DNA of 10,337 nucleotides from a virus (Duplodnaviria > Heunggongvirae > Uroviricota > Caudoviricetes), in IMG/VR virus record IMGVR_UViG_2703718859_000004, positions 1-10,337 of that record, one strand, 5' to 3'. Position numbers: made by a program. Positions 6,001 to 10,337 of the stretch are shown piece by piece. The first letter of the stretch is position 1; each line of letters opens with the position of its first letter.

Positions 6001-9000
6001 CATGGGTCATGCTGGAACCAGTCAGATTTGAATGCATGAGAACGCCGCCCGTGCCTGCTGGCAGGGGCGGTGGAGTTATCCGAATTGTGTAATTTGGTAT
6101 CTTGCGCCATCGGTTGTCTCTGCTGGCGCAGCAGGTGCCAGTTGTTCAGGCTGGCGTGCGGCAATATTGTCTCTGATTTCTGTTGTCGTCAACAGGCAGC
6201 GTGCTATCATCGAATAGTGTTCTATCCTACTCCGTGAGGTTTACCATGCGTACAACCCAACAATTCAGCATTACATTAACTAACGAGATGGCTGACATGG
6301 TGCGCGCCCGTGTGGCTTCCGGCGCCTATGCTTCAGAAAGCGAGGTCATTCGTGAAGGGCTTCGCGCACTGAATGAGCGCGATAAAGCAATCGAAGCGTG
6401 GTTAACGCATTCAGCCGCCCCCTCTCTTGATTCTATCCGCGAAAACCCAAACAACGGACGCTCCATTTCACAGGTTCGCGTCGCGATTCGATCCGGGAAG
6501 TAATCTGCATGACATATGAAGTCATCATTACTCCTGAGGCCGAACAACAAATAATCAACCTGCACAGATATATAACGGAGAAAGCAGGGAACATCATTGC
6601 TGACAATTATGCCAATGCGCTTCTTGATTATCTTGATGGGTTTTCTACATTCCCGCATCGGGGCAATAAACGCGATGATATTCGCCAGGGGATGCGGGTA
6701 ACTCATTTCCGCCACAGAACGATTATTGCTTTTGCCGTTGATGGCAGAAAAGTCTTTATTGTCGGTATCTATCATGGTGGGCAAAGTTATGAAACCGATT
6801 TCTTATAAACTTTTACCCACATCATTCCGGTGTTAGAATAAACCGTCTGCCCCTCTCTTACTGCGGATTCGTAGGCTATATAAATCAAAGATCCCGGCTC
6901 ATGTTTGTGGCGGGATCTTTTTTCGGCGATTTATCCCCAGCGGCAAATCGAATACACCACCAGCGCCACCGCCATTGCAATACCAACATTTGAGAAGGCC
7001 TCAGGCCAGCTCATTGGCGCACCTCCTGCGGCGGTTCTGGTAGCGGCATCCAGTGTGATGGTATCCACGACGCACCAGGTACTACCCACCCATCATTAGC
7101 GTCAGGATGCCCCGGGATGTAAGTCGCCCATTTCATTCGCCAGTCACCTTTCCTGTCAAACTCCCTGGCAACAAGAACGGCTGTTTTGGTATCCGGCATT
7201 CGCTCACTACAGCTTATCCAACCATCCGGAGTTACCGGCACTGGCTTGGCGGTATAAAGCGGTGTTATATCTGCCCGAAAATTACATGCTTTATGCAGCC
7301 GCACCCACCGTTCGACTTCTGCTTTGTCAGAATACATACCAGTGAACGTGTTATATTCACGGTCAATTTGCGTGAATGTTACCTTCCACGCCACCGGCTC
7401 TGCTTCCAGAGATGCCAGTGCGATACGCAGGGAAGCCAGGATATTCCCCTGGTAATCATCAAGCCCGAAAGGAAGCTCATCACGAACGCTTTCATAATCG
7501 TTGATAGCCTGCTGCAGCCATTCTCTTGTGATAGTGCTCATGATTCCTCTCCTTTACCGGCTGCGGCGGCGATACGAAAAAGTTTAATGTCGCCGCTGTC
7601 TGAGTTCTGCTTACTCCAGATAAGTGACGTTTCTCGCCCGCGCTCGTTGATATGCATGAGATTTCTTTCGTCTGTAAAGCATGCAGGGATGAAAGCTACA
7701 GGGAGTGGATAGAGGGCAACTGCATCATCACCCCATTGCTCAACTGCATATTTCTCATCGGTTGTGAACCTCGACATGAATGATGTGACGTTAGCATTCC
7801 TCATCCATGCAACTGGCTTAACGTCCCGCGCCTGCAGCTCAGCAATCCGCTTCTCTGCTGCTTCCAGCTCAACACGCAGCTTCCCTACCGTTAGCGCAAT
7901 ATCCTCGTTCTCCTGGTCGCGGCGTTTGATGTATTGCTGGTTTCTTTCCCGTTCATCCAGCAGCGCCAGCACGGTAGCTGGATTGGCTGCGGCGATGAAT
8001 TCAGCATTGGCCTGCTGTTCCATTTGGAAATCTTCATCGAAACCGCTTTCAGGATGCGCTCCTTCAATTCTGCAAATGGGAATATATCCAGCAACTTCAC
8101 GATGAATTAGCGCATCATCACCATCAAATCGTCCCTCTCCATATTCGAGCGACCACTCGCCACACGTTGCTTTTTCTGCCTTAGCACGCAATGCCTGATA
8201 GTCAATCTTGCTCACTGGTTGCCTCCTTTGCGAAGCTCAGCGGCGAAGGCTACTGCGTGATCATGATGTTCAAGTGTGTATGCACACTCCGCAAACATCT
8301 CCACGCCCTGCGCTCGTACTTCAGCCAGGAAAGCATCGGTGGCAGGCATATTTCCTGTTGCCTTCATGGCCTCCAAAATAACCAGAACGCCATCTCTCCC
8401 AACCTCCTCGCAGATAACCTCGGTGTTGTCGCCAACAACATCGCAGAATGCCTGAACTGCTTTACGAGCAAGTGCATTCTCCGCCGCCAGCGCCACAAGA
8501 TTAGCTTCCAGCTCTGCAATACGTTTGCTTTGGGCTTCCCGTTCATCCAGCAGTGCCTGTACTACTTCAGGGTTGAAAGCTGCAATAAATTCTGCGTTGT
8601 TCTCTGCATTTTTCTGGTCATCAAAGCCAGGCCATTTGATAATGTCTCCGCAACGTTCATCCCCCGGCGTATGCACCGCATATGTATCAGTGCCCGGCGA
8701 AATGAATGCGACCCATTCGCCCTGGGTTGCCAGTTTTGCTATCTCACGTAGCGTCTGATAATTAATTTTTCTCACTGGTTGCCTCCTGGAAAATAACCGC
8801 ATGTCCCAGTTTCTCCGCCAGTGCCAGTTCTGCCTTAGCGCCTGCCGACCGCTGCCAGCCTTTCAGCATGTAAATCGCATCCACGCAGCGTATCATCGCC
8901 ATGCAAATATCCATGTAGTGTGGCTGTGTCAGTCCGTCCGGAAGTACTGCCGGGTTTAAAACGGTATGCCCTTCCCGTTTCAGTGCTTCTTCCGCCCTGT

Positions 9001-10337
9001 GAAACGCCTCACGGTTGAAATTTTCATATCCCGTCATCGGACCGGCGATATAAATTCTCACCCTCACGCCTGAACCCTCCTGTCGAAATAAACGTAGTTA
9101 TTCACTGCGCCCAACTTCATCCCAAACTTTTCGGCAATTTCCCGTCGGGGTACGCCACGCTGATGCAGTTGCCGCGCCAGCTCAATATCACGCTGTGAAC
9201 ATTTGGCTGACTGGTGATAATCACCCCGTAACATCATGCAGATACCCAGTTCCCGCGCTTTCGTCCTGACGGCAGCCCCACTACGGCCAATCAGACTGCC
9301 GATGCTTTCGACTGTCATCGTTCCCGCACACTGCCGGAGTATCATAATTTCCGCCCAGCGCCACTTCTTCCAGCCACTCACCGCAGCAGCTCTCTGGTGG
9401 CGGTAATATCCCGGAGAATATCCCTGTGTTTGTTCAGTTCCCGCAGCGCGGCACAGACTCGCTCCCACTTCTGAACATCACTTTTCGCCCTGCGCAGCGC
9501 CAGGTTTGCCCTGCACAGGGACAGAAAAATCAGCTCATCTGCTTGCGTTTCGGTAAACGATGGCAACGACTGCACAATGTCCGCCACTGTTTCTGTTTTA
9601 ATATCTTCCTGTGTTGCAGATTCCTGTACTGGTAACGCAACACCTGCTGGCTGAGGAAAGGCCTTACCATCATTTTCCGTTACCGGCACGGCTTTCGGCT
9701 CTGCTGGTAAATTATCGCCCGGCATGCAGTAACGAAATTTACCGTTCTGATTTACGCGTGCCAGGCGTCCCGTTGCGGTTACCACCGCCAACGTGGAAGC
9801 AACCTTGCGAATGCTAACACCGAACTTATCCGCCAGTTCCTCACACGTTTTAGCCCCCTCCTGACCGATAAACTCAATCATCATGTCTGCGGTAACTTTT
9901 TGTTCGATCTCCCCGGTCAGCACATCCGGTACTTCAGACTGTTCTGGCTGCTCTTCGGTTACCCCGGATTCACCTTCGCCAGCCAGAAACCAGATGTGAC
10001 CCGCTTTATCAACAACGCCATTTCTTTTGAGTTCCCACAGTTCGTTGAGAACCTCTTCACGACTGATATCAAGCCGCTCAGCCAGTCCAACAGAGCTGGC
10101 TTTTCCCATTGCTTTCAGTGCGTCAAAAACGGTTTCCATTAAAATTTCCTCCTACAAAATCGCTTCTCAGATTCAAATAAAACCAGCTGCCTTCCGGCGT
10201 TCGTATTCCTGTTTCAGCCATTCAATTGGCGTTGGCCCTTTCGGGTGTTTCGCCCCTTCCAGTTGTCGTCGCACTGGCGGAACACTCATCCCGTTACCAA
10301 CATGCTTTGCCCATTTCGTCAGTTGCCGTTCCGCAAG

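Follow-up and report, generated by a model that had tools for sequence, protein, structure and literature searches.

A block of overlapping genes in a Stx2b prophage as a probable mosaic of exchangeable accessory genes

A block of six overlapping genes in an Escherichia coli prophage carrying Shiga toxin (Stx) genes appears to be a recombinant string of independently exchangeable accessory genes in a delayed-early rightward operon, and not one system; we put the probability of this at about 0.85. The block lies in a segment of an E. coli Stx2b prophage with 99.8% identity to strain 2012EL-2448, and the whole 10,337-nucleotide stretch that was analysed (IMG/VR record IMGVR_UViG_2703718859_000004, positions 1 to 10,337) is called the window here. 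All relevant genes are on its minus strand, where the block has replication gene P on one side and the DUF968-RusA-Q genes on the other, in the place of ren and the nin genes in lambda. The mosaic interpretation follows from a whole that is rare and parts that are ubiquitous. In a megablast search of 5426 complete E. coli genomes with positions 6931-10139 as the query, parts of the block were present in 4230 genomes and the whole (at least 80% collinear) in 2. Every piece of it (DUF1627, a slot for a helix-turn-helix [HTH] or a DUF977 protein, DUF4406, and a cassette of ea-type genes) occurs in other phages with other neighbours, and the block is an ordinary mosaic accessory region in which familiar modules have recombined into a rare arrangement.

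An earlier, sequence-only reading of this DNA had described the six genes as tightly coupled, with a fixed stoichiometry and a shared process, and as a candidate cluster for host takeover or anti-defence. Its family assignments (DUF1627, DUF4406, two Ead_Ea22 proteins, and DUF551) were confirmed by Pfam. The genes are listed below in the order of transcription, together with a seventh open reading frame (ORF), overlooked in that reading, that follows them.

9378..10139, minus strand: DUF1627 (YdaW-like) protein, 253 residues; Pfam E 7e-94; PHROG 630
9064..9381, minus strand: small dual-HTH protein, 105 residues from GTG 9381; weak Sigma70_r4/HTH_7 matches; PHROG 323 over residues 5-104
8762..9067, minus strand: DUF4406 protein, 101 residues; Pfam E 9e-37
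8212..8775, minus strand: EadA, 187 residues; Pfam Ead_Ea22 E 8e-27
7538..8215, minus strand: EadB, 225 residues; Pfam Ead_Ea22 E 3e-33
7011..7541, minus strand: DUF551 protein, EaA-like, 176 residues; Pfam DUF551 E 2e-20 over residues 107-172
6931-7014, minus strand: hydrophobic ORF of 27 residues, MSWPEAFSNVGIAMAVALVVYSICRWG; ATGA overlap on the DUF551 stop, AGGAGG 7 nucleotides upstream

Gene order among related prophages

Conservation of gene order across related prophages had been named beforehand as a test of a shared system, and the order was not conserved. Along with its rarity in complete genomes, no phage record held 80% or more of the block collinearly, and the exact six-gene order was present in 6 of 55 close DUF4406 loci from IMG/VR. 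The latter belong to a set of 320 related loci that was assembled with four of the proteins as queries, taking the closest 80 relatives per query, and onto which all window proteins were mapped. The retention of gene content and order that would mark a conserved system was therefore seen in neither the 5426 genomes, the phage records, nor the 55 loci.

Different parts of the block change neighbours in different ways. An Ead gene is directly 3′ of DUF4406 in 10 of the 55 loci, and among 50 loci with EadB-type genes just 1 has DUF4406 upstream of them. The slot between DUF1627 and DUF4406 holds two unrelated proteins: the gene 5′ of DUF4406 encodes the HTH protein in 45 of 80 loci and a DUF977 (‘LygF’) protein in the other 35, and the gene 3′ of DUF1627 is the HTH gene in 21 of 64 loci and the DUF977 gene in 43. 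A distant relationship between DUF977/LygF and the HTH protein was considered and rejected, as the two do not align; a search of the literature on ‘LygF’ returned nothing relevant. Close Stx2 prophages keep P-DUF1627-HTH-DUF4406, with Ead-Ead-DUF551 replaced by DUF7167 and two hypothetical genes, and carry hok in place of parDE. Distant DUF4406 genes adjoin an integrase gene in Vibrio, lie in an ea region after Ead and Eai genes in Edwardsiella, and directly follow DnaB in Rouxiella. Pieces of the second half of the block are similarly dispersed. Phage BP-4795 carries one Ead and one DUF551 gene, with the 27-residue ORF, between exo and xis/int, and 933W has an Ead gene, one hypothetical gene, and the 27-residue ORF after ant and a DksA-like gene, adjoining hok/sok near attR.

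Several observations weigh against free exchange of all these genes. DUF1627 was followed by either the HTH or the DUF977 gene in all 64 sampled loci, and one or the other preceded DUF4406 in all 80. Ead and DUF551 genes co-occur in the same order in ~60% of loci, and Ead-DUF551 fusion proteins exist (PHROG 60; Ea22_V2, PMC10834534). The sample of nearest relatives is also biased to E. coli prophages. Such recurrent associations in the block could be functional.

These associations lead to the proposal that two or three real sub-modules lie within the mosaic: an Ead-(x)-DUF551-27-residue ORF cassette that moves between the exo-xis and ren/nin slots, and DUF1627-(HTH or DUF977)-DUF4406 tied to the replication module. 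We hold this to be possible but less likely than not. The first would be consistent with the presence of a DUF551 gene downstream in 31 of 50 EadB-type loci and of an Ead gene upstream in 36 of 62 DUF551 loci, with the 27-residue ORF within 500 nucleotides of DUF551 in 39 of 76, with the fusion proteins, and with an order that is also that of eaE-eaD-eaA in P22. The second would fit the position of DUF1627 directly after P or DnaC-like genes. However, the genes in between are variable (gaps of 300-1300 nucleotides), the 27-residue ORF also follows at least four genes other than DUF551, 24 of 64 DUF1627 loci lack DUF4406, DUF4406 in turn is found without DUF1627, and the middle slot is shared by two unrelated proteins.

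Overlapping junctions in early operons

The overlaps on which a shared process had been proposed are real. When the minus strand was read directly, all five stop/start junctions were as claimed: GTGA at 9381-9378 (DUF1627 stop, HTH start), GTGA at 9067-9064 (HTH stop, DUF4406 start), GTGA at 8215-8212 (EadA stop, EadB start), ATGA at 7541-7538 (EadB stop, DUF551 start), and a 14-nucleotide overlap at 8775-8762 between the GTG start of EadA and the TAA stop of DUF4406. The strong Shine-Dalgarno sequences reported for most of the genes were also present, with AGGAGG-type sites 5′ of five of the six (DUF1627, DUF4406, EadA, EadB, and DUF551) and a weak GAGAG before the HTH gene. The coupled run does not end at six genes, as an ATGA at 7014-7011 joins the DUF551 stop to the start of the 27-residue ORF.

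The start of EadA at GTG 8775 is backed by its paralog, its orthologs, and the Prokaryotic Genome Annotation Pipeline (PGAP). For the HTH gene, PGAP places the start at ATG 9345, giving 93 residues and a 32-nucleotide gap to DUF1627. Comparison of homologues favours GTG 9381, as the sequence-only reading had chosen, because the codon at 9345 is CTG in most of them, while the GTG or ATG overlapping the DUF1627 stop and a WxxW N-terminus are conserved. The PGAP start is probably wrong.

What fails is the step from overlaps to function. Between O and Q of lambda, 10 of 11 junctions overlap, and the genes that they join serve replication, exclusion, recombination, phosphatase activity, and antitermination. 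The P22 ea region has the same pattern, and exceptionally dense packing, with ATGA overlaps, has been described for the nin genes of every lambdoid phage (PMC8022706). Elsewhere in the window, Q and RusA overlap by 4 nucleotides, RusA and DUF968 abut, and the gap between DUF968 and the next gene is 1 nucleotide. Since overlaps are generic in lambda, P22, and the rest of the window among functionally unrelated genes, stop/start overlap in lambdoid early operons is no evidence of shared function, and a fixed stoichiometry cannot be derived from it.

Some overlaps are part of the exchanged DNA. The start of Ead genes carries a fixed leader, AGGAGGCAACCAGTGAG, that is seen 3′ of DUF4406, of another Ead gene, and of others (at least three kinds of upstream gene), and it overwrites the 3′ end, or supplies the last codons, of any gene upstream. 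At least some overlaps are thus portable recombination joints that travel with the cassette. The C-terminal tails of the Ead proteins are themselves the translated Shine-Dalgarno sequence of the next gene (7538-7556 and 8212-8232, minus strand), with KGEES encoded by AAAGGAGAGGAA and RKGGNQ encoded by AAAGGAGGCAACCAG. A ‘common K/RGE motif’ has been described at the C-termini of Ea22 proteins (PMC7093339). Because the tails coincide with the ribosome-binding site in this way, the K/RGE motif, and the RKGGNQ common to EaE and Oad2, may be a coupling signal and not a protein feature.

That the block encodes the components of a single machine or pathway, acting in fixed stoichiometry in host takeover or anti-defence, is very improbable. 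The coupling of all junctions, the location in a known accessory slot, and the lack of any consensus promoter-like or terminator-like site on the genes’ strand within the block would all suit such a unit. In a promoter and terminator scan of the block, the number of sites was not above that in shuffled controls. The unconserved order largely refutes the single-machine reading; also against it are the different neighbours of each gene elsewhere, the same coupling between unrelated functions in lambda and P22, and scans of the block proteins with PADLOC (two weak HTH-type matches for DUF1627 and none for the others) and NCBIfam, which gave no system matches. The mosaic interpretation gives the coupling a different role: at the level of translation, it would allow cassettes that lack promoters to be expressed from a single long early transcript, after which the products would act separately. 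DUF1627 and the HTH protein would bind DNA, DUF4406 would carry out N-glycosidic chemistry, EadB would act in the lysis-lysogeny decision, and EadA might act against OLD. The boundaries of such modules are not visible in the GC content, which is flat over the block.

Known counterparts of the block and its proteins

The nearest parallel in position is the ren-nin region of lambda, which follows the same strand logic: a non-essential accessory run is read from the early rightward promoter, with ATGA-type overlaps, and is followed by recombination genes (RusA in the window) and Q. The block likewise lies on one strand, after the replication genes and before Q, and its genes are joined by ATGA and GTGA overlaps. 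The content differs, as none of the six proteins is a nin protein, DUF1627 occupies the position of Ren without BLASTP similarity to it, and the operon of the window is interrupted by a convergent parDE pair. The nearest parallel in content is the leftward ea operon of P22. The C-terminal half of EadA resembles EaE (E 2e-7), EadB resembles EaD (E 2e-18) and Ea22, and the DUF551 protein resembles EaA, in the order eaE-eaD-eaA. The P22 ea and lambda exo-xis regions, like the block, are made of overlapping, mosaic genes. In the window the cassette follows the replication genes in the rightward operon instead of adjoining xis/int; its EaE-like part is fused to an Ead N-terminus in EadA, the pyrophosphohydrolase domain of EaA is absent, and its Ead C-terminal domains differ from that of lambda Ea22. 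Judged by these similarities, the second half of the block is a compact P22-type ea cassette (EaE-like, EaD/Ea22-like, EaA-like/DUF551, and the 27-residue ORF) placed in the rightward operon.

These relatives change the picture of a set of proteins said to have no defined function, a statement that is out of date for the Ea22/EaD family of EadB and the Oad2 family of EadA. A host-modulating or anti-defence role for genes in this slot is therefore supported gene by gene and not for the block as one unit. Remote homology linked EadA, EadB, and the DUF551 protein to ea-region proteins. A sequence search of five proteins against Protein Data Bank (PDB) chains gave nothing meaningful; structure prediction was informative for DUF4406 and not for DUF551.

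Both EadA and EadB have the Ead/Ea22 (PF13935) N-terminal segment and coiled coil, and they are paralogous over the first ~99 residues only. EadB is similar to lambda Ea22 over the N-terminus and coiled coil (BLASTP E 1e-25), with an extra 36 residues inserted in EadB; the similarity stops after the coiled coil, and the C-terminal domain is unrelated. The lambda-type Ea22 C-terminal domain and exo-xis location are thus absent from the Ead genes of the block, which lie after P in the rightward operon. The pro-lysogenic effect reported for Ea22 is known only from lambda and Phi24B mutants deleted for ea22, in which both lysogenisation and survival of the host are reduced (PMC7093339). Variants of Ea22 have been described, including one, Ea22_V2, that is fused to DUF551, and an EadB with a differing C-terminal domain fits this published picture (PMC10834534). 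By analogy, EadB would bias the lysis-lysogeny decision as Ea22 does. In strain 2012EL-2448, PGAP labels the second Ead gene (NZ_CP027586 16662-17339) a pseudogene ‘missing C-terminus’; this looks like an annotation artefact because the ORF is intact and identical to the 225-residue EadB.

EadA joins an Ead/Ea22 N-terminal module (residues 1-~85) to an EaE/Oad2-like C-terminal part. Residues 53-187 match HK446 gp27 (Oad2) with E 1e-10 and 34% identity over 155 residues, sharing the motifs LAAENA, PATDAFLAEVRAQ (the core), and LRKGGNQ; in alignment A3 of the EaE/Oad2 family, P144-L150, E152, R154, and A155 are invariant. A 2026 preprint (10.64898/2026.07.10.737580) reports that Oad2 binds the P2 OLD nuclease directly and blocks OLD toxicity and defence, that it is related to P22 EaE, and that it occurs fused to EaD/Ea22 in some phages. 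On sequence grounds EadA is such an Ead-Oad2 fusion. Both Oad2 and EadA are encoded in a modular accessory hotspot, while EadA has the extra Ead/Ea22 module and a shorter C-terminal part.

At least one gene of the block could therefore be truly counter-defensive, with EadA inhibiting an OLD-family (ABC ATPase-TOPRIM) nuclease like Oad2, perhaps as a tetramer formed through the Ead N-terminus and coiled coil. The match, the shared motifs, and the precedent of fused relatives argue for this. Against it stand the modest identity, the failure of a 54%-identical homologue from HK75 to inhibit OLD, which indicates narrow specificity (10.64898/2026.07.10.737580), and the finding that part of the shared C-terminal motif is translated Shine-Dalgarno sequence. 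We consider it rather unlikely that EadA acts in this way; the similarity is a lead, not a function, and EadA may block an OLD-family nuclease.

The DUF551 protein has a helical N-terminal module, a conserved alpha/beta middle (residues 41-105), and a C-terminal DUF551 domain with a hypervariable core. It is similar to both ends of P22 EaA (E 1e-5, and 2e-10 for the C-terminus), and the PF04447 dATP/dGTP pyrophosphohydrolase domain in the centre of EaA is absent from it. In the family alignment (A1; window 7011-7225, minus strand), the ends ‘WISCSERMP’ and ‘HWMPLPEPP’ are near-invariant, with ~45 hypervariable residues in between. Several unrelated versions of the first 40 residues also exist in the family, a pattern of intragenic mosaicism. 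The AlphaFold2 (AF2) model was poor (predicted local distance difference test [pLDDT] score 64); its Foldseek matches were noise, and no fold was matched.

A further relative comes from the yfdQRST cluster of prophage CPS-53 in E. coli K-12, which adjoins an excisionase gene and inhibits host replication initiation when overexpressed (PMC4776307). YfdS has a DUF551 domain and is marginally similar to the DUF551 protein of the window (BLASTP E 0.056); YfdQ and YfdR have no counterpart there. The N-terminus of YfdT (yfdT, 9874-10179 of the locus), MTTFTNKELIKEIKERISSLEVRDDIERRAYEIALVSLEVEP, matches an N-terminal variant of the DUF551 family, and by their sequences YfdS and YfdT look like two halves of one DUF551-type protein.

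DUF4406 gave the clearest structural result. Its AF2 model (pLDDT 90) matched nucleoside 2-deoxyribosyltransferases (NDTs), MilB, and DNPH1 in a Foldseek search of the PDB (E 3e-5, query TM-score [TMq] 0.71-0.76); the 14 matches at E ≤ 0.001 were all NDTs, with further NDTs, MilB, and DNPH1 at E 0.001-0.013. The protein is predicted to have a minimal fold of the NDT/DNPH1/MilB type, at 101 residues compared with 130-160 in the characterised enzymes (~50 shorter), lacking the C-terminal third of NDTs. Its similarity to PF05014 is under the Pfam threshold. The N-terminal YxAGP motif is kept, and so is an invariant S74-x-G-A-x-A-E80, a candidate for the D/S-x-G-x-x-x-E motif of the catalytic nucleophile; its E80 is unchanged in 35 homologues and aligns with the Glu of CGTAFE, the catalytic motif of the Trypanosoma brucei NDT (2a0k), in a weak profile alignment (E 0.9). 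The model suggests that DUF4406 may cleave or transfer the N-glycosidic bond of a (deoxy)nucleoside or nucleotide.

DUF1627 is the first gene after P here, and in related Rac-like and Stx prophages its predecessor is P or a DnaC-like gene. The tandem winged helices attributed to it correspond to two weak matches (residues 1-56 and 84-140), and those, like the matches for the dual HTH of the next protein, are all sub-threshold; both proteins probably bind DNA. A match of DUF1627 to PHROG 142 is also weak (E 2.7e-5) and covers one winged-helix segment only. Lambda Ren was rejected as a homologue, as BLASTP gave no alignment. The counterpart in Rac-SA53 is annotated as ‘ydaW’, and a preprint on the Pas small RNA (sRNA) names DUF1627 as a synteny marker only.

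The 27-residue ORF and the surroundings of the block

The 27-residue ORF is conserved and probably coding. Matches were found by tblastn in 91 related loci, and 89 extracted copies gave 30 distinct intact alleles; some copies have in-frame two-codon deletions, and a few contain a stop codon or have no start. Its start overlaps the preceding stop behind at least five different upstream genes, and it precedes at least three different downstream sequences, so that differing genes lie on both flanks. Many of the changes are synonymous, with a crude ratio of non-synonymous to synonymous polymorphism (pN/pS) of 0.32. Because every allele is open on the antisense strand too, the ORF is judged to be coding from its conserved start, ribosome-binding site, and stop, together with the pattern of substitutions. 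PGAP does not call the ORF in 2012EL-2448, and the RefSeq records of 933W and BP-4795 have no separate coding sequence there, although it is present; a few GenBank records list it as ‘hypothetical protein’. YpdJ of CPS-53 was considered as a counterpart and rejected, the sequences being unrelated.

The Ead-Ead-DUF551-27-residue ORF segment could also be read as a mobile host-interaction cassette, built of an Ead/Ea22 oligomerisation scaffold, interchangeable effector domains, and the 27-residue peptide as partner. It would hop between two accessory slots of lambdoid prophages, with EadA turning its Oad2-like domain against OLD-family nucleases, the hypervariable DUF551 core as a second specificity module, and the universally linked 27-residue membrane peptide as an unrecognised functional partner. 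We think this unlikely, and prefer to regard these genes as part of the mosaic.

The remaining features of the window lie outside the block.

6887-6920: 10-bp hairpin between the 27-residue ORF and convergent parE
6183-6808, plus strand: ParD/ParE pair, convergent to the block
1651-1899: three tRNA genes, upstream of stxA
149-356, minus strand: STnc100 sRNA (Rfam, 102.6 bits)

On the minus strand the order is a DnaT-like gene, P (cut by the window edge), the six genes, the convergent parDE pair, a small hypothetical gene, DUF968, RusA, the Q antiterminator, a methylase, three tRNAs, and stx2b. The identical DUF1627 protein is on record from a contig of 10,337 bases; the window is probably one complete contig of a draft assembly, and this would account for the truncated P. 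The hairpin has a run of six T on the plus strand and TTTGATTT on the minus strand, and a 70-nucleotide stretch around it folds with -15.8 kcal/mol. It is likely to be a bidirectional terminator, as far as its sequence and fold indicate, and was missed by a simple terminator scan because its loop is too long. It accompanies the ParDE variant of the downstream slot and not the hok/sok variants. This slot, after the 27-residue ORF, alternates between convergent ParD/ParE and Hok/Sok in related prophages; in 933W the ORF is immediately before sokW/hokW. An Rfam search found no known RNA in 6800-10337. At the other end of the window, the 3′ part of STnc100 lies downstream of stxB (321-584), with its first ~36 nucleotides overlapping the 3′ end of stxB.

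For lambdoid phages in general, the block carries a caution that overlapping junctions in early operons cannot be read as shared function. Two smaller points may be of specialist interest: the DNA encoding the conserved C-terminal ‘K/RGE’ and ‘RKGGNQ’ ends of Ea22/EaE proteins is also the ribosome-binding site for the following gene, and a conserved ORF of 27 residues, left unannotated by PGAP, is linked to ea cassettes in many Stx phages, including 933W. The Ead-EaE/Oad2-like fusion in a Stx2b prophage provides a directly testable candidate against OLD-family defences. Because Stx is produced on prophage induction, Stx-prophage genes that shift the balance between lysis and lysogeny also have some medical relevance.

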